Source of the DNA: Eledone cirrhosa
Lineage: Eukaryota
NCBI GenBank assembly: GCA_964016885.1
Contig: OZ024750.1
Span: 51,894,001-51,958,000, forward strand
Direction of reading: 5' to 3'
DNA length: 64,000 nucleotides
The notes under the pieces were generated by a model. The model was not told the origin of the DNA. It was given only the letters and a program-made list of their open reading frames with translations, and ran no database searches. Numbering within the stretch: position 1 is the stretch's first letter; each line of letters opens with the position of its first letter. A program made the position numbers and the translations under genes. Shown here in pieces: positions 1,121 to 40,038 of this stretch.

Positions 1121-4100
1121 TATTTCTTTATTAGCCACAGGGGCACAAAAGAAGGGGACAAATACAAAGGGGGAAGTTTACATACAATAAAAACGTGTAA
1201 AATGTTATCACAGATGGAATTTAAAAGCTAGTCGATTTTCCCCAATAGAGGGAGACAGTTTATATGGGTAACACATACCCCCGAAAAAAAATGTGCAACC
1301 CTCATCTCCAGGAGTACGAAGAGCTTGTACTCCTTTCCTCTCCTCCTCCTTTTCCTCAACCTACAGGCTGATATAGAGAGAAGGCCCATTCACTCGGGCC
1401 ATTCTCGCCACTTTCACCCACCTTTCATAAAACTTGCTGGGGTACAGCACCTCTCTCTCCATCCTGATTCTTCTTCCAAAGTGGTATTCGAAAAAAAGAA
1501 TCAGTTGTTGGCCGGAGAGAAAGGTGTCTGACCTCAGCCCTTTCAACCTTTTCCACCATACAACCTCTTTCGCCATAGCTATCACACAAAGGAAAACCGC
1601 CTCTCCTTCGTTTTTGAAGGAGGGTGGCGGTTTGATCATGACAATGGACTCGGTGGTCAACTGGATTGGTCCCACCCGCGACAATAGTCGTTCCACATAG
1701 CCCCACAGGTCAGTGACGCCCGGGCAGTGTATGAATGCGTGCGCGACGGTTTCTTCGTCTCGCACGCACCTCGGACAGATCTTTTTTGCAGGGTCCCTTC
1801 CCGGGCGCCCATGTCTGTAGAGCTTGTCTCGAACTGGTAGAGGTCCTCGGTAGCACTGCCAGGCCAGGGACTTTTGGAAGTTGTCCATCGGTCCCGGGCG
1901 GAAGGTCCTACCGAACAGACTGGCCAGTTCATCTTCCTCTACGCCTAGAGTTTCACCGAGCGCGTCGTCGCACTTGCTGCGGACCAACCCTCTATAGAAT
2001 GACGAAGTGGGGTCTCCACTGATCGCCGGATCCGCCTGCCAGAGGGCTGTGAGCGCCTGAGCACATTCGATGTGCCAGTCGCCCATTTTCCTCGGTCTCT
2101 GCTTGACCCAGGACTGCAGCTCGGTCAGCGAGACGAGTCGTGGGAAGGCTCGCCTCACGAACGGGGCCCACACCGGTTGTCCGGTGAGGAATACGTAGAG
2201 ATGCCGCAGCCTGAGCGCGTGTTTGCGCATCGTCAACCACGGCATCCCCAGCCCTCCGTTAGAAGGGTGTTGGCAGCTGGAAGAAGTCGGGCCGTTCAGC
2301 TCCGAAAGGGGAGTAGACGGCGACCAGTCTCAAGGCCGCACTTTCACTACTGCCAACGTCTAGCACCAACAAACGACCCTCCGGGTCCGAGTGCACAACC
2401 TGTACGGCAAGACCCAGGTGTTTTTGCAGCAGTACGACAACCCACCCCCACCTCCAGGTTGACAGAGAGATGCATGCACCTCAAAGTCATCGAAGGTGGG
2501 GGCCAGCTGCCGCACGACGCTGATTCGAGTCGCACAGATAACCATTACATTTATACCACATGACCTGAGGTCATTTAGAAGCTTTGCTTGCTTCCAAGTT
2601 GAGCCCAGGCCACGTGCATTCAAACATCCTACTCTTAACACATCCATGTGGGCGGCAGAGCCAAAGGAGAGTGTAGAGACCTACCTTTCCGCTTCCCGGG
2701 GTTCGGGTTGCACGACTTCCATGGGGTCGGGGGTGTTGGGTGAAGGGGTGTCTTGTGGTGGTGTGGGGTCGTCAGTGTGTGGTAGGGTTGGGGTGTTTGG
2801 AGTTGTGTTGGGGAGGGGAAGGGGAGGGGGAAAGCTTTTTAGTAGGACGCGGTTTGTGGGTTTGACAGAGGGTGGTCCTACGTCCTCCTTAAAATCCTTT
2901 TTTAGTTTTTGGTAGAGGTTCATTGGGATCTTTATTAATTTTAAATGTGGGTAGTTTTCTGAAGAAACAAAGTTTACACCTTCGGTTTGTACCGAAGGAT
3001 TATTGTATATGAGTTCATTTAATTTATTATTGTTTCTGTTGATGTAAGTATAGTGTAATGTCTTTTTTTCGGATGGTGTGAGTGTTTCGAAGAGGGGAGG
3101 GGCAGGTTTGGTTTTGTTTGTTGCTGGAGGGGTGTTTTCTGTTTTGTTGGATTGTGTTGAGATTTGGGTGGGGGTTGTTTGGCCTTGTGTGTTTTGCACA
3201 TGTTTTCTTTTTTTCCTTTTAATCTGTCTGAAGGACTCCGTTTCTTCCTCCGAATTCGTTGGGTTATCTTCAGTGCTGGAGGGAAGAGGTATGTTTGCTG
3301 GTAATGTTTCCGTGTTGGTTTTCTTTGTGGGGGAGATGGATGTCATTATGTTAGACTGTGTTGTGTGTTGTGTCTGCGGTGGTTGTGTTGTTTTATTGAG
3401 TGAGAGGTTGGGTGGGCCTGTATTTTGTTTTGGGGTAATGTGTTGTGACTGTTTGTGTTGTGGTGGTGGTGTGGTTTTACTGAGGGACGGGTTGGGTGGG
3501 ACTGAGTTTTGTTGTTTGTTTATCTGTTGTGGTGGTGGTGGTGGAGGTGGTGTTGGTAGCAGGGTTTTCTTTTTGTTGAGTTGGGGACAAGCGGCCTTCA
3601 GGTGCCCTCTGCCTGCACAGATATGGCAGGACGGCCTTCTCCCCTCCACGCTAATGTTTATATACCCGTGGCCCTCTAATAGGATTCTGTCGGGTATTTG
3701 GGCGATGTGTTCAGGCTTCATTTGCACTACCAGCTCTATACCTGTTCCACTGAACGCATTGCCTGTGGTTTTCCCAATGGAAATCACGTTGTCATTCACT
3801 GGATCGATGAAGCCAGCTATGAGCCAGCAGTAGTCCACATCTGGCATCATTGCATCCAGCCATATGCGTTGAGTTCTTTTAGCCATATAAGATGGATAAA
3901 AGGTGAAATTTTTCGAACGAATCGGTGACAAAGCATATTTTTTTGCCGCCGATTCGTTCTTCATGATAATTGCTAGGCTTCCATACAGTCTGTCTTTTCT
4001 TATGAAAGTGGTTTCATTAAGTACTTCTGTAAGTACTGTTTTGATATCTGCTTGAGAAGGCTGTTCAGGTTTTTTTGTACCGTTGTTGATGGTGCGAAAC

Positions 4101-10500: not shown

Positions 10501-10955
10501 TAGTCCCAACGTGCATCCAGGATGTCATTCCAATCCCCCGCTAGAAGCAGGGAACGCGACGTTCCCAGAAAAGTCTCCAAACGCTGGAAGAAGTCGGGCC
10601 GTTCAGCTCCGAAAGGGGAGTAGACGGCGACCAGTCTCAAGGCCGCATTTTCACTACTGCCAACGTCTAGCACCAACAAACGACCCTCCGGGTCCGAGTG
10701 CACAACCTGTACGGCAAGACCCAGGTGTTTTTGCAGCAGCACGACAACCCCACCCCCACCTCCAGGTTGACAGAGAGATGCATGCACCTCAAAGTCATCG
10801 AAGGTGGGGGCCAGCTGCCGCATGACGCTGATTCGAGTCTCACAGATAACCATTACATTTATACTACATGACTTGAGGTCATTTAGAAGCTTTGCTTGCT
10901 TCCAAGTTGAGCCCAGGCCACGTGCATTCAAACATCCTACTCTTAACACATCCAT
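7518..10955 (-). CDS. ORF2 polyprotein: APE endonuclease, reverse transcriptase, C-terminal Cys-rich domain (1145 aa)
   Basis: APE motifs LNARG, CET, VYSP, GDWN, YLDRF, TDH; GPGYWKLN; RT motifs KSPGLDG, NFRPITLLN, DQSKAFD, RQGCPLS, YADD; CPRC...ETVAHALVQC. Confidence 0.96.
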   Translation of the reverse strand: MDVLRVGCLNARGLGSTWKQAKLLNDLKSCSINVMVICETRISVMRQLAPTFDDFEVHASLCQPGGGGGVVVLLQKHLGLAVQVVHSDPEGRLLVLDVGSSENAALRLVAVYSPFGAERPDFFQRLETFLGTSRSLLLAGDWNDILDARWDYAGACPNRGGCNSLKGLLDRFNLVDRYRLDFPTVPTWTWRNHSGQSRSYLDRFLVRSKDRDILSCPEMRTVGYTDHKLVTCVVNLEKTHRQGPGYWKLNLSLPAKETYRNRISRLVKERLTGAIVNNRWWASLKREIRTESISYSKMLAANRNRNEKELTGKLEEAIKSEDVARVMASRTALNQFFDAKHEGCVIRSKIRALGNEGAKAVGWARVTEAKSGNRSTIRSLQDEDGRVIREPKQMCKAFQKHFARLFGGGEGPGRGVDFGPYLDGLPRLSNKEAESCEGPISADEIGDALSQCSRRKSPGLDGIPYELYLAMPVFFSELLEAVYCNWQQNGRIPCSVAKGVVTLVRKDENKGDSINNFRPITLLNTELKILAKVLAKRLALVVGGLVGDAQTCAIPSRSIHDNLHLMRYIIERVGNKPGFGGALINLDQSKAFDRVDHGYLDAVLAAAGFGPVFRGWITALHSNHICSRIKVNGYLSKPFEITRSIRQGCPLSSLLYVLTLEPLLRKLELLQGIPLEPGLSKAVSAYADDVTVMVSTDSEIEAIGTLLEEYERLSGAKLNREKSIGLQLGTWRGKPMPPDGVVGHWTEGPVKLLGVWFGPDLQVEKNWNEVTNKVFALTQKWAKCKLSLKGRAEVANIYIASVTYYRLTVVPCPKETLTTMERMLFQFLWKKRPPMVRRSICCQQPSKGGLGMPWLMMRRHALRLRHLQVFLTGQPVWAPFVKRAFPRLVSLTELQSWVKQRSGKLGDWHTECAQALRALWQAGRAIGGESTSSFYRGLVASRGDDTLGESLDMEEDELASLFGRTFGPGPMDNFQKSLAWQCYRGALPVRERLYRHGRPGRDPSKKICPRCVRHEETVAHALVQCPGVADLWGYAEQLLSRVAPIKLTAESVMTIKPPPLFTKEAKAVFLCVIAMLKEVVWWTRLKGLRSGNFLSGHSLVYFFRYHFGRRIRMEREVLGHRQFYERWVIVARMARVNGPSLYTIL

Positions 10956-10988
10956 GTGGGCGGCAGAGCCAAAGGAGAGTGTAGAGAC

Positions 10989-12866
10989 CTACCTTTCCGC
11001 TTCCCGGGGTTCGGGTTGCACGACTTCCATGGGGTCGGGGGTGTTGGGTGAAGGGGTGTCTTGTGGTGGTGTGGGGTCGTCGGTGTGTGGTGGGGTTGGG
11101 GTGTTTGGAGTTGTGTTGGGGAGGGGAAGGGGAGGGGGAAAGCTTTTTAGTAGGACGCGGTTTATGGGTTTGACAGAGGGTGGTCCTACGTCCTCCTTAA
11201 AATCCTTTTTTAGTTTTTGGTAGAGGTTCATTGGGATTTTTATTAGTTTTAAATGTGGGTGGTTTTCTGATGAAACAAAGTTTACACCTTCGGTTTGTAC
11301 CGAAGGATTATTGTATATGAGTTCATTTAATTTATTATTGTTTCTGTTGATGTAAGTATAGTGTAATGTCTTTTTTTCCGATGGTGTGAGTGTTTCGAAG
11401 AGGGGAGGGGCAGGTTTGGTTTTGTTTGTTGCTGGAGGGGTGTTTTCTGTTTTGTTAGATTGTGTTGCGATTTGGGTGGGGGTTGTTTGTCCTTGTGTGT
11501 TTTGCACATGTTTTCTTTTTTTCCTTTTAATCTGTCTGAAGGACTCCGTTTCTTCCTCCGAATTCGTTGGGTTATCTTCAGTGTTGGAGGGAAGAGGTAT
11601 GTTTGCTGGTAATGTTTCCGTGTTGGTTTTCTTTGTGGGGGAGATGGATGTCACTATGTTAGACTGTGTTGTGTGTTGTGTCTGCGGTGGTTGTGTTGTT
11701 TTATTGAGTGAGAGGTTGGGTGGGCCTGTATTTTGTTTTGGGGTAATGTGTTGTGACTGTTTGTGTTGTGGTGGTGTTGTGGTGTTACTGAGGGACGGGT
11801 TGGGTGGGACTGAGTTTTGTTGTTTGTTTATCTGTTGTGGTGGTGGTGGTGGAGCTGGTGTTGGTAGCAGAGTTTTCTTTTTGTTGAGTTGTGGACAAGC
11901 GGCCTTCAGGTGCCCTCTGCCTGCACAGATATGGCAGGATGGCCTTCTCCCCTCCACGCTAATGTTTATATACCCGTGGTCCTCTAATAGGATTCTGTCG
12001 GGTATTTGGGCGATGCGTTCAGGCTTCATTTGTACTACCAGCTCTATACCTGTTCCACTGAACGCATTGCCTGTGGTTTTCCCAATGGAAATCACGTTGT
12101 CATTCACTGGATCGATGAAGCCAGCTATGAGCCAGCAGTAGTCCACATCTGGCATCATTGCATCCAGCCATATGCGTTGAGTTTTTTTTCCCATATAAGA
12201 TGGATAAAAGGTGAAATTTTTCGAACGAATCGGTGACAAAGCACATTTTTTTGCCGCCGATTCGTTCTTCATGATAATTGCTAGGCTTCCATACAGTCTG
12301 TCTTTTCTTATGAAAGTTGTTTCATTCAGTACTTCTGCGAGTACTGTTTTGATATCTGCTTGAGAAGGCTGTTCAGGTTTTTTTGTACTGTTGTTGATGG
12401 TCCGAAACTTGACCGTTCGGCTTTCAATGTCTTTCGTGAATTCTTGAGGCATTTTTACCAATAAAATACCATTCTCACCTTCACTTATGTATTGTTTTGC
12501 GTCCGTGATCCTTCGTACCACATCTGAAATGTTTTCCGCTATATAAGTCAAAGATTTCTTTGTTTTCTGTGCAAAAGAAATCTTGTCGTCTGCTTTGTTT
12601 TCTGATATGATGTTATTTTCAACTGTTATTTTTTTGTTTGTTGTGTCTTTGTTTGTGTTATTAGTATTGTCATGCAATTTTTCAAATTTTTTTTTTTCGT
12701 TGTTTTCGTCATTTAATTTTTCCTCCGCAGATTCGTCCGTTTTTATTTTCATTTTTCCTTCCTTCTCTATGACGTTAGTTGGGAAGGAAGGGAGGACTAA
12801 AGCGTGCGAGCTTACAACTCTTACCGCTGTCCCCCCACCACTATTTTCGTTCGCTGCGTTCAACAT
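10989..12866 (-). CDS. Tx1 ORF1 (625 aa, CCHC zinc knuckle)
   Basis: ATG-initiated open frame upstream of ORF2 with the CX2CX4HX4C motif CHICAGRGHLKAAC. Confidence 0.92.
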   Translation of the reverse strand: MLNAANENSGGGTAVRVVSSHALVLPSFPTNVIEKEGKMKIKTDESAEEKLNDENNEKKKFEKLHDNTNNTNKDTTNKKITVENNIISENKADDKISFAQKTKKSLTYIAENISDVVRRITDAKQYISEGENGILLVKMPQEFTKDIESRTVKFRTINNSTKKPEQPSQADIKTVLAEVLNETTFIRKDRLYGSLAIIMKNESAAKKCALSPIRSKNFTFYPSYMGKKTQRIWLDAMMPDVDYCWLIAGFIDPVNDNVISIGKTTGNAFSGTGIELVVQMKPERIAQIPDRILLEDHGYINISVEGRRPSCHICAGRGHLKAACPQLNKKKTLLPTPAPPPPPQQINKQQNSVPPNPSLSNTTTPPQHKQSQHITPKQNTGPPNLSLNKTTQPPQTQHTTQSNIVTSISPTKKTNTETLPANIPLPSNTEDNPTNSEEETESFRQIKRKKRKHVQNTQGQTTPTQIATQSNKTENTPPATNKTKPAPPLFETLTPSEKKTLHYTYINRNNNKLNELIYNNPSVQTEGVNFVSSENHPHLKLIKIPMNLYQKLKKDFKEDVGPPSVKPINRVLLKSFPPPLPLPNTTPNTPTPPHTDDPTPPQDTPSPNTPDPMEVVQPEPREAER

Positions 12867-15965: not shown

Positions 15966-16150
15966 TGTTTCTACTATTGGCACAAGGCCAGCAATTACCC
16001 AGTACATTGCTGGTACTTTATTTTATCGACCCCGTGAGGATGAAAGGCAAAGTTAACCTCGGCGGGATTTAAATTCAGACCGCAAATGGACGTAACTATG
16101 CTGGAAAGCATGGTGTCCGACCCTCTAACGATACTGCCAATCCACCGCCC
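15966..16150 (-). mobile_element. tRNA-derived SINE family 1, full length
   Basis: A and B boxes on the minus strand; flanking near-duplication TATATATGTATATA(TA)AT. Confidence 0.88.
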
Positions 16151-16319: not shown

Positions 16320-16729
16320 TATATGTGTATATAACTATGGTTTAACTCAAGATAACACAATATATATGTATATAACTATGGTTTAACTCAGCATAACACA
16401 ATATATATGTATATAACTATGGTTTAACTCAAGATAACACAATATATATGTATATAACTATGTTTTAACTCAAGATAACACAATATATATGTATATAACT
16501 ATGGTTTAACTCAAGATAACACAATATATATGTATATAACTATGGTTTAACTCAAGATAACACAATATATATGTATATAACTATGGTTTAATTCGAGATA
16601 ACAGTATATATGTATATAACTATGGTTTAACTCAAGATAACACAATATATATGTATATAACTATGGTTATCCGGAGTTAAACCATAATTATATACATATA
16701 TATTGTGTTAACTTAAGTTAAACCATAGC
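16320..16729. repeat. 41-bp AT-rich minisatellite (about 8.5 copies) ending in an inverted 1.4-copy fold-back
   Basis: Unit TATATAACTATGGTTTAACTCAAGATAACACAATATATATG; 16674-16729 is its reverse complement. Confidence 0.92.
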
Positions 16730-17070
16730 TACAGGTATCTAGGGTTCAATGAAGGCCAAGGTATTCACCACGCCAACAGGAACATCCCTACAGATATCTA
16801 GGGTTCAATGAAGACCAAGGTATTCACCACACCAACAGGAACATCCCTACAGATATCTAGGGTTCAATGAAGGCCAAGGTATTCACCACACCAACAGGAA
16901 CATCCCTACAGATATCTAGGGTTCAATGAAGGCCAAGGTATTCACCACGCCAACAGGAACATCCCTACAGATATCTAGGGTTCAATGAAGACCAAGGTAT
17001 TCACCACACCAACAGGAACATCCCTACAGATATCTAGAGTTCAATGAAGGCCAAGGTATTCACCGCGCCA
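16730..17070 (+). repeat. 59-bp tandem repeat (about 5.8 copies) derived from R4/Dong RT coding sequence
   Basis: Units start at 16730, 16789, 16848, 16907, 16966 and 17025; they translate QEHPYRYLGFNEGQGIHHA, and the last unit continues into SMKHSIRKECYRR. Confidence 0.9.
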
Positions 17071-21944: not shown

Positions 21945-21963
21945 TAATAATAATAATAATAAT

Positions 21964-24900
21964 GATTTCTTTATTAACCACAAGGGTTTACATAAAGTAG
22001 ACATTAAGGACAGTGCAGGACAATACAGGACGGTACAAATGGGCATTTCTGCGTGTAAAAAACAAAAACAGAGGATGTAACAAAAAATAACAATGAAAAA
22101 TTCCCCAATAGGGGGGAGACTTCGGAGGGACATTTGTGGAGAAAGCCCAGTAAAAGGCCACAGTGACCCTGACCACCAAGGCAAGTGCCCTCTCCCATTT
22201 TTCCATCTTTAATTTACAGATACATACTCGGAGTAGGCCCATTCACTCGGGCCATTCTTGCTTCTCTCACCCATCTTTCAACAAAATGCTGGGAAGAGAG
22301 CACTTCCCTCTCAACTCTGATTTTCCTTTTCAAATGAAATTTGAAAAAATCAATCAGGGCATCACCGAAGAGGTAAGTGCTCGTCTTCAGCCCTTTCAAA
22401 CGTGTCCACCATACGATCTCTTTCGCCATGGCCACCAGACAGATAAAAACTGCCTGCCCTTCCCGGCTAAAGGAAGATGGCGGGGCAATCCTCACAATGG
22501 ACTCGGACATGCCCGGCTGACGGCACCTCCATGCCTGTAGAGTTTATCCCGAACTGGCAAAGCTCCTCTGTAGCACTGCCAGGCCAGGGATTTCTGGAAG
22601 TTGTCCATAGGCCCCGGCCCGAAAGTCCGTCCGAAGAGATTGGCTAGTTGATTTTCGTCGACGCCTAGAGTTTCTCCAAGTACGTCGTCGCTCTTCCCCT
22701 CCACTAATCCTCTATAGAACGCCAAGGTGGAGTTTCCACCGATCACATTGCCCGATTGGTCGAGGGCTGTGAGCGCCTGAAGACATTCCAGTCTCCAAAC
22801 GCTCCCTCTCGGTCTTCGCTTGACGCAGGACTGCAGCTCCGTCAAGGAGACGAACTGGGGAAAGACGTGTCTAGCAAACGGCGACCACACCTGATCACCG
22901 TTGAGGAAGAGGTGGAGATGTCGTAGCCTGAGCGCGTGTCTGCGCATCATCAGCTACGGCACTCGCAGCCCTCCACGTAGCGGGTGTTGACCGCAGATGG
23001 ACCGCCTGACCATCAGAGCGCGTCCCTTCCACAAAAAGCGAAAGAGCAAACGCTCCAGCGCAGTTAGGAGGGGCTTAGGACAAGGTACGACGGTCAGGCG
23101 GTCAAAGATGATGGACGCGATATACGCGTTAGCCACCTCCGCTCGACCTTTCAGGGATAGCTTCCTCTCCGCCCATTTCTGGGTGAGAAAGGCCACCCTG
23201 CTCGTCACCTCGTCCCAGTTCTTGTCCGTCTGGAGGTCCGGACCGAACCAGACCCCTAGCAATTTAACCGGTCCGTCCGTCCAGCGCCCGACGACGCTGT
23301 TGGGCGGCATGGACCTGCCTCTACAGGTGCCGAGCTGCAGGCCCACTGACTTTTCCTGGTTGATCATTGCTCCTGTCACCGCTTCGTATTCTCTTAGTGT
23401 AGTGCCGATCGCCTCGATGTGTTTGGCGTTCGACACCACTACGGTGACATCGTCCGCATATGCTGACACGGATCTTCCGCATCCTAGTTCGCGCGTCTCT
23501 AGTTCGCGCGTCTCTAGTTTGTGCAGTAATGGTTCGAGAGTCAATACGTACAAGAGGGACGAGAGGGGACATCCTTGGCGGACCGAGCGCATGATGTTAA
23601 ACGGTTCCGAAAGGTGACCGTTCACTCTCACCACAGAGCAGATGTCGCTGTGCATGGCAGCGAGACAGCCTCTGAAGACGGGCCCAAAGCCAGCCGCCCT
23701 CAGGACTGCCACTAGGTAGCGATGGTCGACCCTATCGAAAGCTTTCGCCTGATCTAAATTGATCAAAGACCCACCCATGCCAGGTTCCCTAGCTACCCTC
23801 TCTACGATGTATCGCATGAGGTGGAGGTTGTCGTCGATGGATCTGTCGGGAATGGCGCATGTCTGCGCCTCTCCCACCAGACCACCAACGACAAGCGCCA
23901 ACCTCTTTACTAGCACCTTGGCCAAAATCCTGAACTCTGTGTTTAGCAGAGTTATGGGCCGGAAATTGTCTATGTTATCCCCCTTGTTCGGATCCTTTCT
24001 CAGCAGTGCCACAGCTCCTCGGCTCACAGAGCTGGGAGTTCTCCCGTTCTGTTGCCAGTTGCAGTAGACGTCCGCCAAGAGGCCTCCGAAAAAGTTATGG
24101 CATCTGTACGTAAAGTTCATAGGGCAGACCATCTAAACCAGGCGATTTACCCCTTGTGCAGCCAGTCATTGCATCCCGTACTTCAGCGGCTGTTATCGGC
24201 TTTTCGCAACACTCCGACTCAGTGGCCGAGAGCCGCGGCAGTCCGTCGAGGTAGACACTAAAGTCCATCCCTCGACCCGGCCCACCGCTGCCCCCGAACA
24301 ACTGAGCGAAGTGTCGCTGAAAAGCTTCACACATTTGCCCGGGATCGAGTAGCATGCGCCCGTCGTGGTCCACCAAAGACCGGATCGTGGCTTTGTTGCC
24401 ACGACGCGCCTCCGCCACTCGGGTCATTGAACGGCTTTCGTCCCCTCGTGTCTGAGAGCACGCACCCTAGCTCTGACAACGCAGCCTTCTTGCTTTGCAT
24501 TGAAGAATTGGTCAAGGGCCAATTTCGCCGCAAGCACGTCGGTCGCAATGCCTTTGCTAAGCGCCTCGTCTAATTTTCTAACTAGTTCTCCCTCTGCTCT
24601 ATTTTTCTCTATTGCTAAAGCCTTACTAAACCTAATGGACTCTATTCTAATCGCTCTTTTCAGAGCAAACCACCATTTGTTGTTGACGATGGCCCCCGTC
24701 AACGCCCGCTTAACTAGTTCGCTAATCCGGTCTCTGTAGGCCTTGCGCGCTGGTAAGGACGCGTTTAGCTTCCAGTAGCCGGGTCCTCGTCTATGAAGCC
24801 TATCTAAGTCAAGCACACAGATCACGAATGTGTGGTCCGCGTAGCTGACTATCTTGAATTGCGGACAGCCTATGCTAGATGAATCTATTTCCCTACAAAA

Positions 24901-26857
24901 TAGTCTATCTAGATATGATCTGGATGACCCGATACGATTTGTCCAAGTCCACATTGGCACATTCGGGAAATCCAATCGGTACCTGTCAGACAGTTCAAAA
25001 CGCCTGAGCAGGTTGGTGAGGCTCTTGCACCCTCCTCCCCTATCCGCTAATCCCACACAATCCCAGTGTGCATCTAAGATCCCGTTCCAGTCGCCCACTA
25101 ACACTAAAGAGCGGGACGTTCCAAGAAAGGTCTCCAGACGCCGGAAGAAATCAGGCCGCCCTGCTCCTGTTGGGGCATAGACGGTCACTAGGCTGAAAGC
25201 TTGCCCGTCTCGGCTGGTCACGTCCAGCACCACCAACTTACCTTCTGGGTCCAGGAAGATGGCTCGTATGGCGAGATCCAAACCTCTCCGAAAAAGCACA
25301 GCAACTCGTTCCCCGGGAGATTCGTACACATCGTAGCCGCTGAAGATCGGTGCGAAGGCCCGTGCTTCGGAGATTCTGGTCTCGCTGATGGCCATTACAT
25401 CTATGTTTAATGACCTGAGGTCGTTGAGCAGGTGGCCCTGCTTCCATGACGACCCCAAGCCACGCGCATTTATGCTGCCTATTCGAGTGAGGTCATGTTG
25501 AAATGGAGTGGAAAAGATGGGAAAGATCACTTACCTTACTTTTCGTAGAGGACGGATGGTTTCTCAATCCCTTTTTACTTGATCGTCTTGTGAAGGAACC
25601 GTTGTATCGTCCCTTCGGCTGGTCGTCGGCTCTTCTATGAGTATGTCCGAATATACTCTCCGGTTGAGAGTCCCTCCTAGGTCTCTGAAATCACCAACTG
25701 CGTTGTGGAATTTCGTTTTAATGTTTGTGTATTGTTTCTGTGCTATTCTTACCAGTCTTATATTCGTTGGTGTTTTGATTGGTGCTGGTATAATGTAGTC
25801 GTGCTGTGAAATGTCTGTGTGTTCAATTATGTAAGTCATTAGTTTCTTGTTGTGTGTATTTATTGCCGTGCATTTGTTTTTCTGGGAGTGGGGTGTGGTT
25901 CTGCTATTTTCTTGTCGTAGTTGCTGGGTGTGTGTGTTTTGTTGTTGTGTTTGCGATGTTGGTGCTTATGGTGGTGGTGTTGAAGGTGTTGTTGTTGTTG
26001 GCGGTGGGGTTGTCGCCGATGTTGATGGTGGTGCTAGTGTGGGTGATGATGGTGTTGGTGGTGTTGCTGCTGTGAGTCTCTTTGCAGTAGCCTTTACCCT
26101 TTTTTCATTTCTATCCTCCCTTTTCGAAGGCGACGATGCGCTGCTTCTGCGTTTGTGCCTTCTTGCGACCTTTTGCCATCCCTCTCCCACCTCACACTCC
26201 ATGTATGATTCTGTGAGGTCGGGGAGGGGTACCAGCTCCACTCTTTCACTTGTTGTTGTTGGTGATATTTGCAGTGGAGTCTCTGTTGCAGCTGCAGTTG
26301 GTATTACTGTTGTTGTTGTTAATACTTCCACTGCTGCTGCTGTTCTTGATTTCCGTGGCGTGGGTATGGGTGCCACGGACCTATCGTTCCTGGTTGCCGC
26401 TTGTCCTGTTGCTGGTAGCAGTGGAGCCGGTTTCGGAAGGAGGGGGCTTTCTCCTTTCTCAGGGTCTTCTCGTTGCAGAAGGCCCTGAGGTGAGTCTTCG
26501 ATCCACAGCGAAAGCATTTCGGGCGTTTGCCCTCAACACTTATGGTCAGTTGAGTGCCGTTATCGAAGTCTATCACATCCAGGATAGCTTCGATGCACTC
26601 CTGGTTGGTTTGGATTAACATCTCAATGGAGGTGCCGACCCAATCTTCTCTTACTTTTTTCTGTACTTGCAGTACAGTTGTTTTGTCCTCGATTCCGACG
26701 AGGACAGACGCGGCCAGCCAAGAAGGGGCCATCCCGGGGGGACGTGGGTCAGTTTGACCCTCACAATTTTTTGCCCGCACTAGGAGGGCACCAACACCAT
26801 TTCCTCGGTCCTTAGAGTCACTAAGGATTGAGCCTTTGCCTCCTGGGGTGTGACAAA
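21964..26857 (-). mobile_element. Tx1-clade LINE family B, copy B1 (decayed, 5' part of ORF1 missing), (ATT)n tail
   Basis: Fragmented ORF2 (22214-25530) with APE and RT motifs; ORF1 remnants with CFRCGSKTHLRAFC; AATAAAGAAATC(ATT)n terminus. Confidence 0.9.
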
Positions 26858-29800
26858 ATCTCTTTTGCCATGGCCACCAGACAGATAAAAACTGCCTGCC
26901 CTTCCCGGCTAAAGGAGGAGGGCGGGGCAATCCTCACGATGGACTCAGATGATAGCCGGATCCGTCCTAAACGCAACAGCAGGTGTTCGACATAAATCCG
27001 CAAGTCAGCAATTTTCGGACACTGGACGAGTGCGTGCAGGACGGTTTCGTCGCCATGCGCGCATCTCGGACATGCCCGGCTGACGGCACCTCCATGCCTG
27101 TAGAGTTTATCCCGAACTGGCAAGGCTCCTCGGTAGCACTGCCAGGCCAGAGATTTCTGGAAGTTGTCCATAGGCCCCGGCCCGAAAGTTCTTCCGAAGA
27201 GATTGGCTAGTTGATTTTCGTCGACGCCTAGAGTTTCCCCAAGTACGTCGTCGCTCTTCCCCTCCACTAATCCTCTATAGAACGCCGAGGTGGAGTTTCC
27301 ACCGATCACATTGCCCGATTGGTCGAGGGCTGTGAGCGCCTGAAGACATTCCAGTCTCCAGGCGCTCCCTCTCGGTCTTCGCTTGACCCAGGACTGCAGC
27401 TCCGTCAAGGAAACGAGCTGAGGAAATACGTGTCTAGCAAACGGCGACCACACCTGATCACCGTCGAGGAAGAGCTGGAGATGTCGTAGCCTGAGTGCGT
27501 GCCTGCGCATCATCAGCCACGGCATGCCCAGCCCTCCACGTAGCCGGTGTTGACAACAGATGGACCTCCTTAGGACAAGGTACGACGGTCAGGCGGTATC
27601 AGATGACAGACGCGATGTACGCGTTAGCCACCTCCGCTCGACCTTTCAGGGATAGCTTCGTCTCCGCCCATTTCTGGGTGAGAGAAGCCACCCTGCTCGT
27701 CACCTCGTCCCAGTTTTTGTCCGTCTGGAGGTCCGGACCGAACCAGACCCCTAGCAATTTAACCGGTCCGTCCGTCCAGCGTCCGACGACGCTGTTGGTA
27801 ACGATGGTCGACCCTATCGAAAGCTTTCGACTGATCTAAATTGATCAAGGACCCACCCGTGCCAGGTTCCCTAACTACCCTCTCTACGATGTATCGCATG
27901 AGGTGGAGGTTGTCGTGGATGAATCTGTCGGGAATGGCGCATGTTTGCGCCTCTCTCACCAGACCACCAACGACAAGCGCCAACCTCTTTGCTAACACCT
28001 TGGCCAAAATCTTGAACTCTGTGTTTAGCAGAGTTATGGGCCTAAAATTATTTATGTTATCCCTCTTGTTTGGATCCTTTCTCAGCAGCGCCACCGCTCC
28101 TCGGCACACAGAGCTGGAAATTCTCCCGTTCTGTTGCCAGTTGCAGTAGACGTCCGCCAAGAAGCCTCCGAACAAGTCTGGCATTTGTACGTAAAGTTCA
28201 TAGGGCAGACCATCCAAACCAGATGATTCACCCCTTGTGCAGTCAGTCATTGCCTCCCGTACTTCAGCGGCTGTTATCGGCTTTTCGCAACACTCTGCCT
28301 CAGTGGCCGAGAGCCGCGGCAGTCCGTCGAGGTATACACTAAAGTCCATCCCTCGATCCGGCCCGCCGCTGCCCCCAAACAGTTGAGCGAAGTGTCGCTG
28401 AAAAGCTTCACACATTTGCCCGGGATCGAGTAGCATGCGCCCGTCGTGGTCCACCAAAGACCGGATTGTGGCTTTGTTGCCACGCCGCGCCTCCGCCACT
28501 CGGGACCATTGAACGGTTTTGAGCACGCACCCTAGCTCTGACAACGCAGCCTTCTTGCTTTGCATTGAAGAATTGGTCAAGGGCCAATTTCGCCGCAAGT
28601 ACCTCGGTTGCGATGCCTTTGCTAAGCGCCTCGTCTAATTTTCTAACTAATTCTCCCTCTGCTCTATTTTTCTCTATTGCTAAAGCCTTACTAAACCTAA
28701 TGGACTCTATTCTAATTGCTCTTTTCAGAGCAAACCACCACTTGTTGTTGACGATGGCCCCCGTCAACGCCCGCTTAACTAGGTCTCTGTAGGCCTTGCG
28801 CGCTGGTAAGGACGCGTTTAGCTTCCAGTAGCCGGGTCCTCGTCTATGAAGCCTATCTAAGTCAAGCAAACAGATCACGAATTTGTGGTCCGTGTAGATG
28901 ACTATCTTGAATTGTGGACAGCCTATGCTCGACCTATCTATTTCCCTACAAAATACTCTATCTAGATATGATCTGGATGACCCGATACGATTTGTCCAAG
29001 TCCACATTGGCACATTCGGGAAATCCAATCGGTATCTATCAGACAGTTCAAAACGCCTGAGCAGGTTGGTGAGGCTCTTGCACCCTCCTCCCCTATCCGC
29101 TAATCCCACACATTCCCAGCGTGCATCTAAGATCGCGTTCCAGTCGCCCACTAACACTAAAGAGCGGGACGTTCCAAGAAAGGTCTCCAGACGCCGGAAG
29201 AAATCAGGCCGCCCTGCTCCTGACAGGGCATAGACGGCCACTAGCCTGAAAGCTTGCTCTGCTCCGCTGGTCACGTCTAACACCACCAACTTACCTTCGG
29301 GGTCCAGGAAGATGGCCCGTATGCCGAGATCCAAACCTCTCCGAAAAAGCACAGCAACTCCTCCCCCGATCCCGGACGGCTGGGAGATGCGTACACATCG
29401 TAGCCGCCTAAGATCGGTGCGAAGGCCCGTGCTTCGGAGAATCTGGTCTCCCTGATGACCACTACATCTATGTTTAGTGACCTGAAGTCGTTGAGTAGGT
29501 GGCCCTGCTTCCATGACGACCCCAAGCCACGCGCATTTATGCTGCCTATTCTGAGTGAGGTCATGTTGAAATGGAGTGGAAAAGATGGGAAAGACCACTT
29601 ACCTTACTTCTCGTAGAGGAAGGATGGTTTGTCCATCCTTTTCACTGCTTGTGGCCTCCTCCGGAAGGATGTCCTTATAAATCCTCCTGGAGAGTGCTTG
29701 TCGGAAGTCTCTGATGTCTTTGGGGAATTTTTGTTTTAGTGTCGTGTACGTTTTCTGTGTGATGCGAGTGATTTGTATGTGTGGAGGTGGTGTCAACTTT

Positions 29801-31744
29801 TGGCTTGTTGTGTAGTCTTTTTCTGTGATGCTGGTGTTGTGTTGGATGTAGAGTAATAATTGGTTGTTGTTCAAATGTAATGCTGTGTAGTGTGTATCGT
29901 TTTGGTTGTTTTGGTTTGTTTGCGTCTGTTGTGGGTTTGTTTCTGTTTCGCTTTTTGGTGACTTTTGTGGTGTTGGTGATGGTGGTGTTGGGGTTAATGA
30001 TGGTGATGGTGTTGGTGTTGGTGGTCATGGGGTTGGTGATGCTGGTGTGGATGGTAGCATATCTGTCCTAACTTATTGTTTGATAATTTATTTGTTTCCC
30101 TCTATTTTGTTTTTGGAAGGGAAAGGAAGAGAATTTTTTCTTTTTGGGTTTATTTTTTTATTTTTTCCTGATACCGTTTCCCACTCCTCGTCGTCACAAT
30201 CTGTCTCCAGTTGCGATAAGCCGGAGAGTGGAAAATCCTCCACAGGCGTTGGTTTTGGTTGTGGCGTGGTGGATGGTGTAGGCGCTGGTGCTAGTTCTGG
30301 CGCGTTGGGTGGTGGTGGTGTTGGTTTTGCTACTGTTGCTGGGGATGTTGCTGTTACAGTTGCTTCTGTTGTTGCTGCTACAGTTGTTGCTGCCATTTCT
30401 GCTGCTGGTGGTGTTGATGGTTGAGTCACTGGGGTGGGTAAGAGAGGTGGCCTCAACCTTTTAGCCTGAGGGCAGAAAGCCCTTAGGTGGGTTCCTTCAC
30501 CACAAACGACACACCTAGGTCTTCTGCCCTCGACGATTACGGTGAGGTGGCTGCCGTCAGTGAGGTCTATTACCTCTGGGATCTCCTCAATGCTTTTATG
30601 GTCCACTTGGATCAGGAGCTCCATCCCAGATCCGGACCAGTTCTCCTTCTTTTCTTTCGCTATTTCGATTATCTTGGTGTTGGCGTCGATGCCGGCGAGG
30701 ACGGCAACCATTAGCCAGGGAATTTCGATGGCCGGTGGAACGTGGGTCACCCTGATCTTCACAAGTCTCTGGCCACAATAGCTTGGGACGAGTGTGAAGT
30801 CGTCACTTCTTAATGGGGCCATGGAGTGTTCTCTGGCCTCCTGTGGTGTTTCAAAGAACACGTCCACGGTTCCATACTTCTGCCCACGTCTGAATTGGTT
30901 TTTTTTTGCCCACACATGTCCCAAAGCTTTTTGGATTTGGGACTCGGATGCTCGTTCCACTCGGCGCGATTTTATGTTAATTGTCCGATAAGACGTTGCT
31001 CCATTTTATTAGGTGGGGGTGAGACTGACCCTGTACCCATCTTTCTTTACCATTCCTTTGGCTTCTTCTAATTCCTCCTGAGTTACCTGGATCACTTCGC
31101 ACGTTTTTGCTACTCTGGCAAAACTCAGAGTAGTTTTCTTAATTTCATTGTTGCTGTTGTTGTTATCGTTATTTTTGCTATTGTTAATTTTAGTTTCAGT
31201 TGTGGTGGTGGTGGCGTCAGTGGTGTTCGGTGGGGAAGAGTTCATTTTGGTTGAATTCATTTCGATATCACGAGTTAATTTATTTTTTCTTTTGTTTCTG
31301 TTGTCGCTGTGGGGGTGGTTCGGGTGGTGGTTGTCGCGGTGGTGGTGGTGGTGGCGGCTTTAACACCTGCAGTCATTGGTAATGACGGGAAATGAACGTC
31401 TGCCTGAGACAAATTTAAAATATTGCTACTGCTTACATTTCCAGTGTTGGCAAACGTAGCAATATTTACAATGGTGGTGTCGGTGTGAGGTGTTAGATTG
31501 TGAGGTAGGAGTGACTCTGAGTTATCCATGATTTTTCAAAGAAAAATTTTTGTTTGATAATTAGAAAAAGTTTAAATTTTGGGCTCAAGGCCCCAATATT
31601 TTTGTGTGTCCTTTTCAGAAATCAATGTATGTGCACTTATATACAGTTAACAATAAAAAATTTCCATAAATGGCAATTTTAAACAACTGAAAATAACAAG
31701 CCCTTGCGGAGCTCACGATGATACGATTTACTACATAGGTCGCC
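26858..31744 (-). mobile_element. Tx1-clade LINE family B, copy B2 (decayed, 3' end missing, 5' end abuts (AAT)n)
   Basis: ORF2 fragments 26858-29564; ORF1 fragments 29599-31529 with CVVCGEGTHLRAFC. Confidence 0.9.
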
Positions 31745-31765
31745 AATAATAATAATAATAATAAT

Positions 31766-31946
31766 TGTTTCTACTTTTTTGGCACAAGGCCAGCAATTAC
31801 CCAGTGCATTACTGGTACTTTATTTTATCGACCCCGTAAGGCTGAAAGGCAAAGTTAACCTCGGCGGGATTCGAACTCAGAATGGCAAGGACCGTAACTC
31901 CATGCGTCAAAGCATAGCGTCCGACCCTCTACCGATACTGCCAATC
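31766..31946 (-). mobile_element. SINE family 1
   Basis: A and B boxes on the minus strand; its tail is the (AAT)n at 31745-31765. Confidence 0.88.
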
Positions 31947-31959
31947 TACATATGCATAT

Positions 31960-33867
31960 TATTATGCATTAGGTAAGCCATCACAAGGCAGACACACTTT
32001 AAACTCCTACAAAATCTGGAAAACTCAGAATCAAGCTAGCAAACGTGATATGGATGGAAATAAGTTGGCAAATGTAAGGAGGTATATCTTCATAGATATA
32101 CCTCCTTAGACTCACAGACACTGAATTAACTGCGATCAAGCAGGCTGTGGAGAATGACATAAATATAAATGATGAAAGAACTGAAGAATCTCCTGGAGAT
32201 AGTAACCAGTCACAAGTCTTTACTGAAAGATCCCCATCTGACCAAATCACAAATAGGTTTGTAGAAATGAGAAGCCCTATTGAACCCGCTGAAAATAGCC
32301 AGGAGAGGGACTTAGAAACAGCAATTGAAAACCAAACATCTGCTGAAGAACACAGAGAGACTATGAAGGAATTAAAGCAAAAAATACTGAATGAGCTTGC
32401 AGTAGTAAGACATTCTAGTATAAATGATAGAGGACCACTTCAAAAACTCCCAAATACAATCCAAAATAGAAAACAAATAATGATTGGTAATTCTGTGACA
32501 AAAGAAATCATAGAAGAACTAGAACCTGATCTTACTGAGTTAAATGAAATCATTTATGCATCTGCTAGAGTAATTGAAACAAGTTGTTTACCACCAAAAA
32601 AACAAAAAAGGTCGAACCTTCGAGGTAAACCAATTTGGACGAGTAGAATCGAAAAGGAGATTGACATAATGAGAGGGGAAATATCTTTATTGAGTTAGTT
32701 AACCGCTGGAAATGATATAAGATCCAAGAAGGTAAGAAAGCTAAAGAGAAAATATGGACTGTCTTCTAGAGAAGCAATAGTTTCAACAAAAGAATCTCTG
32801 AAACAAAAAGTCCAAGTAAAAGCCCAACGAATTCGTAGATTCGAGAAGCGAAACAACTTCTACAGGCAAAATGAGTTGTTCTCATCCAATGCCAAGTCAT
32901 TTTATAGAGAAGTAGGGAAGAAAAAAATAATTATTGAACAAAAAGGGTGCCGACGAGGTTCATATGGTTGCAAAGATCAACTTTTGATTAATCGTATGAT
33001 GCTTGAGAACTGTCATAATAAACACAGAAATCTCAGTTCTGCATGGATCGATTATAAAAAGCCTTTGACAGCATACCACACTCATGGATTCTGAAATCAC
33101 TGGACATCTTCAAAGTGTCACAACAAAAAAATAAACCACCTATTTTATATGGATAATTTGAAGCTATATTTCAAAGATAATGACGAACTGGAAGACCTTT
33201 TGCGGACAGTAAAAACGTTTAGCGATGACATCAGGATGGAGTTTGGACTTGACAAGTGTGCAAAAGCCACTTTCAAGAAGGGGCAGCTTGTCAACTCAGA
33301 CTCAGTTGAATTGGATGCTGAAACAATCATAAAGGAACTTGAGCAGGAACAAACCTGGAAATACTTTGGGATTAATGAGGGCTCTGGCATGCAGCATGCA
33401 AGTATGAAAGAGAGGATAAGGAAAGAATGTTACAGGAGATCAGAACTAAACGCTCGTAACAACGTGCTAGCCATAAATTCCTTGGCAGTCCCAGTTGTCA
33501 CTTATAGCTTCGGTGTGTTGAACTGGAATATGAGTAAAATCAAAAGAATCGACACCAAAGTCCGTAAGCTACTGACCTGTAATAGGATGCACCACCCAAA
33601 AGCAGATGTGGATTGTCTTTACCTTCCTAGAACTCAAGGAGGCCGTGGCCTGATCCAATTTGAACTTGCTTACAAGACCACCATCATTGGACTGGCCAAA
33701 TACCTTGAAACAACTAACGACTGCATGCTGAAACTTGCTGAAAAGCATGAGAGAAGTAAGAAGCTTCATTCTATCTTGAAGGAGAGCAAAAAATATGCTA
33801 CTGATCTCATGCTTGATACTCAGGCTGGACAGACTAAAGAAACTGTTGCAACTGATGCTGTTAGGCA
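31960..33867 (+). mobile_element. Heavily deleted R4/Dong-type LINE
   Basis: EQKGCRRGSYGCKDQLLI, WIDYKK, MDNLKL, FGLDKCA and GGRGL fragments. Confidence 0.82.
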
Positions 33868-36510
33868 CATATCTACCAGCTCCCCGTCCTTTCTATTTTT
33901 CTCTAACGCTAGTTTTTTGCTGAACTCTATCGAAGTTACTCTAATCTCTGTTTTGAGAGCCCCCCACATCTGTTGTTGATGATCTCCCCTGTCAACTTTA
34001 ACTAATCTAAATTGTTGACTCGGTCCCTGTAAGCCGTACGTGCCGGAAATGACATGTTCAGCTTCCAGTAACCCGGTCCAACCTACGCGTTTTATCTAGG
34101 TCGACCATACAGATCACAAATTTGTGATCTGAATAGGCGACCGTTTTAAAAAGTGGGCAGCCTACACTATTTCTATCTATTTTCTTAATGAAGATCCTGT
34201 CTATATACGATCTAGATGACCCCAAGCGGTTGGTCCATGTCCATACTGGCGCATTGGGGAAATCTAGTCGATACCTCTCAGACAGTTGGAACTGGCTGAT
34301 TAGGTGCTTGAGGCTTTTGCAGTCACCCCCCCCCCCCCCTTCCCCTCCTCCCCGCTCCTATCAGCACAATCCCAGCGTGCATCTAATATGCCATTCCAGT
34401 CCCCCGCTAACAGTAAAGGGCGAGACGTACCCAGAAAGGTCTCCAGGCGCCTAAAGACGTCCGGTCGTCCGGCCCCTGAAGGGGCGTAGACGGCCAGCAG
34501 TCTAAAGGCACCACCTTCGCTACTGCTCACATCCAAGACCACCAACTTACCGTCTGGGTCCCGGAAGATCGACCTTACCTCGAGATCCAGTCCTTTCCTA
34601 AACAGCACTGCTACCCCACCTCCCATTCTCGGCCTGCTAACAGATGCGAATATTTGATAGTCGTCGAAAATGGGGGCTAGTGCGCGCGTGTCGGAAAGTC
34701 TGGTCTCGCTGACGGCAATCACATCCATTTCCAACGACCTGAGTTCGTTGAGCAGGCGACTCTGCTTCCAGGGTGACCCCAGGCCGCGAACATTTAAACT
34801 TCCTACTCTTAATATGGCCATGTTGGCAAGAGAGAGGGAAGGTTTACTTACCTCCCGAGGTCTTGTGAAGGTCGGGTGGTTCGACCTCCATGGTTGGTGG
34901 GGTTTCTTTTGGTAACCCCTTTAAAAGTCTCGATGTGGGTTTCACATTCGGGGTTCCCACGTCTTGAGGAAAGCTCTCCCGAATTTCTTTGAAGGAATCG
35001 AGTAACATTCGCACCAGAAGCAAATCTTCTGGCACGCAAAATGTGCTCATTTCAAAGATCTCCCCCTCTGTTGAATGTCCACGCTTCGTGCGAAGAGGGC
35101 CATCAGTTTATCGTTGGCCCTTCTGACAAGCACGAAGTTTTTAACATTTTGTTGGTGGGGTTTTATTTGTTTTCGTTTTGGTGACTGTGGTGGTGATGGT
35201 TTTGGTGGTGTTGTTTCGGGTATGTCTGTGTTTGTTGTAGGTGTGGTGTCTGGAATTTCAGGTATTTGTGTGTTTATTTGTACTTGTGTTTGTTTAGGTT
35301 GTTTGCGTTTCGGGGATTGTGGGGGTGGTGTCGATGTTGCTGTTGGTGCTGGTATTATTGGGGAAGTGTTTGCGTTAGTGGTGTCTGTATTTTTTGTTGT
35401 GTATGTTTTTGTGTTTTGTTGGGGCTTTTTTTTTTGTGAGTTTTCTCTGGGGGTTTTTTGCACTTTTGGGTTTTCCTTCATCTTCGCTGCTGGAAGACAA
35501 AGGGTCTGTGGCTGTGAGTGTATCTGTGTCTGTGTGTGCGTTTATTGTTTTGCTATGTGTATAATTTGAGGGGTAGGGGGAGTGGGAGAACTTTCCTTGT
35601 TTTCCTCTTGGATTGGTTTCTGTGTTGGTGGTGGTCCGGCTGTTTTTAATGTTGGTGTCCGTGTCTTTGTTGGCGTTGTTTTTGGTGGTGGTGGTGCAGC
35701 TTTCCGTGCTGACAATGGCGTTGGCAACAAAGGAGGTTTGCGAACCCCTGCATTTTTGCGCTGAGAGCAGAAGGCTTGCAGATGCTTTGCTTCTTCGCAG
35801 ACGAAGCAGTGCGGCCTTCTTCCCTCAGTGATTAGTTGGATTGTTGTCCCGTCCTGCAGGCGGGCAAAATCCGGGTGGTTGTTCATGTCCTCTGGTTTCA
35901 TTTGGAGAAGAATCTCCAAAACCATTCCGGACCAGTCTTCTCTCTCTGTCCTTTTGATATCCAGGAGGGTAGTGTCTGTCCCCTCCTCGATTACGCATCC
36001 CAGGAGCCACCATATGTTCATTCCTGGTGGGATCCTGGAAATGCGGACCTTTACTGTCCTTTTACCCATGTAGGACGGGTGCATGATAATGCGTTCCGTT
36101 CTGCAGGGGGTCACCGAGTGCTTAAGAGCAAGGGCCTCGGTTTTGAACAGTACCGAGATGGTACCGAACTGTTTGGCCCTTGCTTTATAGTCTATCTCAC
36201 TCCAAAGCAGCCTCGACCTCTGCTTGGCTGGCAAGTTCCACTTTGCGTGTCTGCACTGCATCGAAAGTGCACCGTCCTCCTTTGCATGGCCGCTATTGCC
36301 CCGTCCGGGATGGTCAGGTTTGCCCAGGACTTCTCCCGTTTAATTAACCTCCACGCCTGGGCCAACTGTTCGTCTTTATCGCTAATATCAACATTCAATA
36401 AGCGCTTTGTTTTTGCTGCTGCTGCAGCAAAGGTGGTGCCGCTGTTGCTCTTGTTGTTGGTGTTGTGGTTCTTGCTGTTGTTGTTGGTGTTGTTGTTATT
36501 GTTATTGTTT
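33868..36510 (-). mobile_element. Tx1-clade LINE family C fragment (ORF1 and APE)
   Basis: MAILRVGSLNVRG...SET...GDWN; ORF1 remnants with RRPHCFVCEEAKHLQAFC. Confidence 0.85.
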
Positions 36511-37658: not shown

Positions 37659-37694
37659 TATAATAATAATAATAATAATAATATTAATAATAAT

Positions 37695-37880
37695 TGTTTC
37701 TACTTTTGACACAAGGCCAGCAATTATCTCAGTGCATTACTGGTACTTTATTTCATCGACCCGGTAAGGATGAAAGGCAAAGTTAACCTCGGCGGGATTT
37801 GAACTCAGACCATAAAGGGGTGTAAGTGATAGCTGCAAAGCATGGCGTCCGACCCTCTACCGATACTGCTAATCCACCAC
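37695..37880 (-). mobile_element. SINE family 1, near full length
   Basis: Matches 15966-16150. Confidence 0.88.
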
Positions 37881-40010: not shown

Positions 40011-40038
40011 TACATACATACAGACATACACAGACAGA

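Follow-up and report, generated by a model that had tools for sequence, protein, structure and literature searches.

Mammalian L1, silkworm SART1 and Candida Zorro3, which are long interspersed nuclear elements (LINEs), produce the protein of their second open reading frame (ORF2) by termination and re-initiation on an unspliced RNA that carries two ORFs, and Zorro3 requires the ORF2 ATG (PMC5972666, PMC2881922, PMC1965478; these and the other papers named here are cited from partial texts). Proteins of L1 work in cis, about 2% of full-length L1s are genomic copies made from spliced L1 RNAs, and L1 has a conserved splice donor that mostly goes unused (PMC5860796). Transcripts of several elements, among them L1, Tad and TART (antisense), have also been reported to contain introns (PMC1636488), and those of Tad may be a closer precedent for the case described here. 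The means by which LINEs balance the amounts of ORF1 and ORF2 protein are understood only in part, and those that are known (re-initiation, stop-start coupling and 2A skipping) act at translation. Here we analyse 64,000 nt of genomic DNA from the octopus Eledone cirrhosa (contig OZ024750.1, positions 51,894,001 to 51,958,000; hereafter, the window), which holds a cluster of minus-strand LINEs whose ORF1-ORF2 junctions carry a splice donor-like motif over the ORF1 stop, a pyrimidine tract, the ORF2 ATG and an AG. This cassette is a real, conserved and apparently undescribed cis-element, and its occurrence in several diverged families points to an RNA-processing step at the junction. Fusion of the two ORFs by splicing is possible and is probably not the main route to ORF2.

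No description of a splice cassette located where the two ORFs meet in Tx1-like or octopus LINEs was found in the literature, with Repbase Reports and most subscription papers lying outside the search. The partial text of an octopus LINE paper (PMC9115989) mentions neither Tx1 nor splicing, and that of a gastropod survey (PMC11203168) mentions neither introns nor splicing.

In copy B2 of family B, the intron-like stretch occupies 52 nt of the minus strand (29602-29551), begins with GTAAGT and ends with CTCAG, and thus has the consensus 5' splice site and AG end of a U2-type intron (AG/GTAAGT ... CAG). The original prediction, which read this stretch as a perfect donor over the ORF1 TAA, a pyrimidine tract and a CAG acceptor, quoted the sequence exactly. 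It also held that the ORF1-ORF2 spacer is 34 nt long and that splicing would yield an in-frame joint (...REV-R-IGSINARG), and this agrees with what we find: both donor and acceptor are in phase 2, and excision would join the end of ORF1 (...PLREVR) to ORF2 (IGSINARG...) in frame. Two features were left unweighed. First, the tract begins right behind the donor and stops 17 nt short of the AG; yUnAy-like words, identified by eye against a consensus that is not octopus-specific, lie only 6 and ~12 nt from the AG, compared with the 18-40 nt or so expected of a U2-type branch point. Second, the ORF2 ATG, in the context AACATG, sits within the proposed intron.

Three families contribute ORF1-ORF2 junctions to the window, namely A (copies A1 and A2), B (B2 and B1) and C (34851). 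In all three, the ORF2 ATG is in frame and lies 14 nt before the AG, with no AG between donor and ATG. The spacer measures 33 nt in A and 21 nt in C, such that the ORF2 ATG follows shortly after the ORF1 stop, as in L1-type re-initiation. Excision would join the ORFs in frame in A1, A2 and B2 and out of frame in C, and the cassette of B1 is broken. As originally predicted, B1 retains donor and tract and has a 1-nt deletion at the acceptor (the A of the AG is missing between 25485 and 25484); this deletion also breaks ORF2 from its ATG, and B1 is therefore uninformative on function. The ORF1 of C ends in ...TSGGK (tail ...MEVEPPDLHKTSGGK, then the stop), which places its donor in phase 1, and the only in-frame AGs lie 2 and 5 nt later, at 34806 (GAG) and 34803 (TAG), where they cut into the first strand of the endonuclease. 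It should be noted that C is a single decayed copy whose phase could be altered by a one-base difference. Thus, of the proposal that the cassette fuses the ORFs by splicing, the conserved donor, tract and AG and the phase match in A and B stand, while C, which the proposal did not include, does not conform.

The conservation of the donor contrasts with the divergence around it. In an alignment of five copies from families A, B and C, 7 of the 8 columns of the donor motif are invariant, although the aligner may anchor on the motif, compared with 16/130 columns upstream, 4/30 in the spacer and 49/90 from the ATG on. Of 634 stop-like triplets on the sense strands of the four elements, 7 show the arrangement GG-stop-GT; the end of ORF1 (in A1, B2, B1 and C) accounts for four of these, and a single homologous endonuclease site for three. 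The last ORF1 codon ends in GG in A, in B, in a B variant (AGG to CGG) and in one family derived from reads (GGG), which indicates that G/GT is what is kept. Since C keeps the donor in a different register to the stop, the motif is conserved apart from the fusion frame. Stretches of 28 nt with at least 24 pyrimidines are likewise rare (2/3873 in B2 and 2/4693 in B1), and the spacer ranks first in both copies. At the acceptor, all five Arg codons observed are AGA or AGG, compared with 53 of 98 Arg codons of the form AGR in the ORF2 of A1; the families share ancestry, so that these are not five independent draws. For the same reason, family B cannot serve as the independent support for family A that the original prediction saw in it: with 68-70% DNA identity in ORF2 the two are related families, and B demonstrates conservation of the cassette rather than an independent origin.

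Two other uses of the junction were considered and rejected. A conserved hairpin over stop and donor finds no support in the z-scores (0.13 in B2, 0.64 in A1 and -1.77 in C; -1.44, 1.21, -2.45 and -0.24 for longer windows). Read-through of the stop is not a general route, because spacers of 33, 34, 35 and 29 nt span all three frames.

Four of 18 sequencing runs (X4, X1, X5 and X16) were matched to positions 29300-29900 (likeness 82, share 3), and the matches comprise 68, 3435 and 94 contigs and 6853 raw restriction-site-associated DNA (RAD) reads. None of these runs is on record as RNA. Three consist of contigs, which show presence rather than absence and drop rare forms, and the RAD reads sample few loci, at a depth of ~90-150 reads across the spacer. 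Run X1 may derive from the same sample as the window; X4 holds 88 million letters of contigs under the same organism label and, judged by this size, may be a transcriptome, its kind not being on record. The junction expected from splicing, a 52-nt skip, is not listed in any of the four runs, nor is an intron-less copy, which is a weak negative for runs of this kind. The nine joints that are listed all come from X1 (3435 contigs), have depths of 4-16, skip 98-483 nt and lack splice-type ends. Unspliced forms are present in all four runs, and the spacer is crossed from end to end by unspliced contigs of X4 (records 14 and 15, plus one of depth 77.7) and X1 (record 6). At 29604, the X4 depth of 104 is fully accounted for by three contigs that continue through the spacer, with depths of 77.7 (inferred from shared variant depths), 22.2 (record 15) and 4.19 (record 14).

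The variants in these runs bear on the integrity of the cassette. None falls at the GT, the ATG or the AG among the 40 best-supported variants (171 more were recorded), and the four runs list no deletion of the B1 type at a share of 3 in 100 or above. It is therefore not a common variant, and the CAG on which the prediction depended holds for the family B majority. A subfamily of B with a spacer longer by 1 nt (77.7/228.4 in X4, 16,006/309,221 in X1 and 7/153 reads in X16) keeps both ends in phase. Preceding the final Arg of ORF1, B has Val and a variant at 29607 has Ile. The commonest variant of the last codon, AGG to CGG at 29604, reaches depths of 63,435/310,936 in X1, 77.7/104 in X4 and 44.1/77.7 in X5 and upholds the frame assigned to the ORF1 tail, as it is synonymous (Arg) only in that frame. 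The same frame is backed by the homology of 30024-29602 to the family A ORF1 (tblastn) in both B copies. An alternative tail ending in ...SFLYEK, with its stop before the donor, was rejected because in both B copies the conserved domain leads into the REVR frame; that no common indel is listed in 29603-29900, except in one X4 contig, also counts against it. Family B is found under a second organism label as well (X5 records 23 and 24, with 2 and 10 differing letters).

Further families were derived from the loose ends of matched contigs, reverse-complemented by eye, among the 24 ends listed, with 309 more lying outside the listing. One of them (X4 29570, one contig) reads GG/GTAAGT, tract and AAC ATG. 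In a sister family (X4 29568, three contigs, agreement 0.8), a branch-point-like CTCAC and a tract are followed by a CAG located five bases ahead of the ORF2 ATG, an arrangement resembling a standard 3' splice site, and record 9 (depth 67) is probably among its contigs. The AAC ATG start is shared by four of these families (X4 29568, X4 29570, X5 29540 and X16 29539). The Leu-Arg AG is carried by X4 29530 and X16 29539, while X5 29540 has Lys (AAG) instead, with the AG shifted by one base. A diverged B-like copy (X4 29625) has GC at the donor and has lost the stop.

Based on these results, we favour, with a probability of roughly one half, a reading in which the elements are expressed from an unspliced two-gene RNA, with ORF2 likely translated by re-initiation as in L1, and in which donor and tract likely act as a U1-type docking element that is rarely excised. 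The element RNA would normally be kept unspliced across the spacer, and by analogy with L1, SART1 and Zorro3, ORF2 would be translated from its own ATG by re-initiation after the ORF1 stop. Donor and tract would form a putative docking site for the U1 small nuclear ribonucleoprotein and a helper that binds U-rich sequence. U-rich tracts behind a donor are known to aid U1 binding (TIA-1), and small fly introns with the tract behind the donor are also known; the layout seen here, with the tract adjoining the donor and not the AG, fits both a docking site and an intron. We speculate that bound U1 would shield the long element transcript from early termination, in the way that transcripts with a 5' splice site are protected against termination by Restrictor (PMC12211998), or would make the transcript look intron-bearing. 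Excision would stay rare owing to the distance of 44-53 nt and the absence of a branch point in a suitable place, and the intron-like stretch would thus be copied back into the genome in each round of retrotransposition. If the site is only bound, the cassette would offer a small natural example of a mobile element that displays intron signals.

Two lines of reasoning carry this reading. First, the claim that splicing is needed to restore the frame does not hold up: the ORF2 ATG is kept in every family seen, so that no frame needs restoring, and since L1, SART1 and Zorro3 make ORF2 from unspliced RNA, an out-of-frame spacer needs no repair. Nothing would protect the ATG from decay in an intron that is always spliced out, and the persistence of the ATG argues against splicing as the route to ORF2. 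Second, spliced L1 RNAs leave intron-less genomic copies, which is the basis of the test for such copies applied above. Were a spliced fusion mRNA the main source of the reverse transcriptase, one would expect many intron-less copies and loss of the intron; as the cassette persists and no such copy is listed, we take the RNA to be normally unspliced.

Several observations weigh against the docking reading. It leaves unaccounted for the phase match between the donor and the first AG behind the tract (in A, in B and in the B variant with the longer spacer), the AGR form of all five acceptor Arg codons, and the fit to the first strand of the endonuclease of the residue preceding the final ORF1 Arg (Val in B, Ile in the variant). 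In X4, a depth of 107.1 at 29607-29612 compared with 104 at 29604 indicates that a contig of depth ~3 stops or is clipped 1-3 nt before the donor, and its end is absent from the contig ends listed. The evidence for unspliced RNA comes from runs of which none is on record as RNA and from contigs that drop rare forms. Finally, the role of U1 is putative, and the known protective 5' splice sites are near promoters, while this donor lies ~2 kb into the element.

The alternative that comes next is a real alternative intron whose removal from a minority of transcripts gives a functional ORF1-ORF2 fusion beside ORF2 made from its own ATG. Both sides are in phase 2 in A (51 nt) and B (52 nt), the 1-nt insertion in the B subfamily leaves them so, G/GT is kept behind a last codon ending in GG, no AG lies between donor and ATG in A, B and C, and the acceptor Arg codons are AGR in 5 of 5 cases. 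Splicing would drop a Leu that aligns with Ile8 of the human L1 endonuclease and replace it with Val in B or Ile in the variant; from the alignment to the L1 endonuclease and from conservation, this first-strand residue is predicted to be buried. There is also precedent, as the long terminal repeat (LTR) elements of the Ogre type splice an intron between ORFs in a subset of transcripts (PMC6317226), and median introns of 57-66 nt are reported for annelids, and thus for some spiralians (10.1101/2020.05.07.078311); the literature search returned no corresponding figure for octopus. On the other hand, C would be out of frame (as a single decayed copy), and in the family A fusion Glu would occupy a position at which 41 of 43 relatives carry Leu, Ile, Met or Val. 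One read-derived family has the Lys codon with its shifted AG, and in another the CAG precedes the ATG by 5 nt. Copying of spliced RNA would be expected of a LINE, yet neither intron-less copy nor junction was found in the matched contigs and reads, and human introns below about 70 nt mostly lack canonical ends (PMC5435141). We regard it as a tentative proposal, with perhaps a quarter of the weight, that cephalopod Tx1-like LINEs keep a spliceosomal intron of 44-53 nt over the stop of ORF1 and the start of ORF2, with a minority fusion of the Gag-Pol kind whose spliced RNA is not copied back. If true, a retained intron with a minority fusion would break the usual LINE rule of cis preference, and a spliced fusion would be new for LINEs. 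Excision would then represent a new route of LINE expression and raise the question of how an element copied by reverse transcription keeps an intron.

It is improbable, in our view, that the resemblance to an intron is incidental, with the stop, the last Arg codon, an unstructured pyrimidine-rich spacer for scanning, a Kozak ATG and a conserved Leu-Arg together mimicking one. An equally perfect donor persists at the Gly-Lys-Leu codons of the endonuclease in B1, B2 and C, which implies that families of 70% identity are not saturated and calls for caution, as perfect donors can persist in coding DNA; the conserved L1 donor is likewise retained for a transcription-factor site (PMC5860796). Against this, A, B, C and a read-derived family all retain the GG before and the GT after the stop, although the tail of ORF1 and the spacer have diverged, and C keeps the motif with the stop in another register. 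The endonuclease motif lies ~255 nt after the proposed acceptor in B and C, and not in A; this motif and the tract and AG upstream delimit a unit the size of an exon that, judged from sequence, could splice into host transcripts.

Slightly less probable still is that donor and acceptor serve distant partners, the donor giving an ORF1-only RNA and the acceptor an ORF2-only RNA, with their closeness making the two events mutually exclusive. The family with CTCAC, a tract and a CAG just before the ATG (X4 29568) suits this scheme, and human L1 makes an ORF2-only spliced RNA (PMC2896524). The Octopus bimaculoides model P0144 (RefSeq XP_014773926.1) has a related endonuclease start and reads ...A-N-M-A-V-L-R into it, and in this model an acceptor just before the ATG is possibly used. 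A, B and C have no AG before the ATG, the 5' part of A1 has no strong donor and the donor there in B2 (31086) reads as being in phase 0, and no X4 loose end at the donor is found among the 24 listed ends. P0144 is itself a predicted model, a kinesin whose residues from about 340 to 510 run via an Asn-rich stretch into the endonuclease start; this stretch was tried as an ORF1 and rejected, as it does not align with ORF1. The protein P0055 reads G-E-Q-I-L-P-F-L-S-L ahead of its Met, which a donor and tract could encode (protein only).

Least probable of all is that splicing is the main route to ORF2, as an ORF1-ORF2 fusion: the sequence evidence is that of the alternative intron, but every family seen conserves the ATG within the intron, all three X4 contigs covering the base before the donor continue unspliced, cis preference would strip the intron from the lineage (PMC5860796), and a motif check of 150 listed matches and 14 others, weak because the matches from the lineage are short fragments, found no ORF1 tail fused to an endonuclease.

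Among 172 relatives fetched, the N-terminal motif was found in 43, of which 32 have a Met 1-4 residues before the first-strand Arg or Lys; as gene callers start at ATG, this is partly by construction. Weak negatives were obtained for long proteins related to residues 170-400 of the A1 ORF1 (0/580 candidates) and for long relatives of the endonuclease profile (0/7999). Related loci numbered 0 in 39 stretches of viral contigs, 0 in 85 and 1 in 17 from metagenomes and 0 in 11 from prokaryote genomes, and the single metagenome match (L001) is 26% identical and comes without upstream DNA.

The elements have the features of L1/Tx1-type non-LTR retrotransposons: an ORF2 with an N-terminal APE endonuclease, a reverse transcriptase (RT) and a C-terminal zinc finger, and a separate zinc-knuckle ORF1. 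Pfam PF03372, PF00078 and PF13966 (the last slightly below cut-off) were matched on the ORF2 of A1, and PF03372 on B1 and C; the best relatives of solved structure are human L1 ORF2 and its endonuclease. A C-x2-C-x4-H-x4-C knuckle (CCHC) is visible in the ORF1 of A1, B2 and C, and the Atlas clusters nearest to the family A ORF1 are CCHC or ZCCHC3-like (scores 0.90-0.92), while a Pfam scan of the A1 ORF1 gave no match. The Tx1 label is one that we assume, following the original prediction, rather than one drawn from a tree with named Tx1 references. The architecture is that of an endonuclease-RT LINE and not that of an Ogre-like LTR element with gag-pro and RT-RNase H-integrase.

Copy A1 (minus strand) has both ORFs intact (12917-7518), and A2 is 96% identical to it. 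The A1 element extends from about 13060 to 7305, with an intact ORF1 and an ORF2 of 1145 amino acids, and terminates in AATAAAGAA followed by (ATCT)13. Positions 1-13060 hold family A elements in a head-to-tail train, in which A2 begins directly after the 3' end of the preceding element. Microsatellites of (ATCT)n occur after the 3' end and near the 5' end of A1; with so few copies, they may be tail or target alike. Family A thus stands beside (ATCT)n, and (ATT)n follows the 3' end of B1 and precedes the 5' end of B2 (21950-21970, 31736-31762), so that family-specific microsatellite targets are possible for A and B. From ~45 nt upstream of the donor onward, B2 and B1 are 92% identical; their ORF1 proteins (29646-31005 and 25579-26905) are only ~38-44% identical. 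Judged from the sequences, this is an ORF1 swap with its breakpoint just before the cassette, and because B1-type upstream sequence also occurs in runs X4, X1 and X5 (loose ends at 29642), both ORF1 types are real subfamilies.

Table 1. Positions in the window of the junction cassettes and of the associated element features.
Feature	Position	Strand
Donor-like motif AAG/GTAAGT of B2, exon side ending at 29603, overlapping the ORF1 stop TAA (29601-29599)	29597..29605	minus
Pyrimidine tract of the B2 spacer, 24/29 bases pyrimidine, without AG from donor to ATG	29568..29594	minus
ORF2 start of B2, AAC ATG (MTSLRIGSIN...), ATG at 29564	29562..29567	minus
CAG within the ORF2 Leu-Arg codons of B2, proposed acceptor, phase 2	29551..29553	minus
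ORF1 of B2, zinc-knuckle type, broken into frames 31005-30088 and 30024-29599, ends ...PLREVR and stop	29599..31005	minus
ORF2 of B2, APE endonuclease and RT start, frameshifted, internally deleted	27798..29564	minus
Second perfect donor-like motif, G-K-L codons of the endonuclease, B2 (site 29294); also at 25241 (B1) and 34550 (C)	29289..29297	minus
B1 cassette: donor 25534, tract, ATG 25496, AG lost	25484..25537	minus
A1 cassette: AG/GTAGGT at 10992, ATG 10955, AAG acceptor 10942, 51 nt, in frame	10942..10995	minus
A2 cassette, same sequence as A1	2634..2687	minus
C cassette: AG/GTAAGT at 34851, phase 1, ATG 34821, homologous AG 34808, 44 nt, out of frame	34808..34854	minus

Other repeats surround these elements. 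Plus-strand RT-bearing elements of a different type lie at 40011-43086 and 59954-63215 (92% identical, ~20 kb apart), and more plus-strand RT elements at 19301-21280, 32096-33979 and 55044-58424. A dispersed repeat of ~185 nt resembling a short interspersed nuclear element is present in five copies of 85-95% identity (15961-16145, 31745-31949, 37674-37877, 44563-44743 and 61845-62027), and there are two tandem arrays with 94-96% matches (16320-16668, with 8.6 copies of a 41-nt unit, and 16729-17064, with 5.7 copies of a 59-nt unit).

Set against the described systems, the elements resemble the Tx1 clade (PMC4494074) in their APE endonuclease, RT, C-terminal zinc finger, zinc-knuckle ORF1 and microsatellite-adjacent copies, membership being assumed rather than drawn from a tree; the partial text of that study does not mention the inter-ORF splice cassette that is present here. 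With the spliced L1 forms SpIREs and SpORF2 they share a conserved and rarely used LINE donor (PMC5860796, PMC2896524), excision here being inferred to be rare. The L1 sites differ in lying in the 5' untranslated region and ORF1 and in giving dead-end copies or ORF2-only RNA, and none of those described joins ORF1 to ORF2 in frame. As in Ogre (PMC6317226), an intron-like region lies between the structural ORF and the RT ORF, and its removal would give a single polyprotein; Ogre differs as an LTR element with a spacer that averages 274 bp and splicing that was experimentally shown, whereas here a LINE carries 44-53 nt that hold the ORF2 ATG, as a putative intron recognised from sequence. Mammalian L1, SART1 and Zorro3 differ in having no described donor over the ORF1 stop and no such tract, the spacer of Zorro3 being poly-A and SART1 having an overlapping stop-start, and it is with these LINEs that the octopus elements share two ORFs that do not overlap, a spacer of small size (63 nt in L1, compared with 33-35 nt in A and B) and an ORF2 that has its own ATG.

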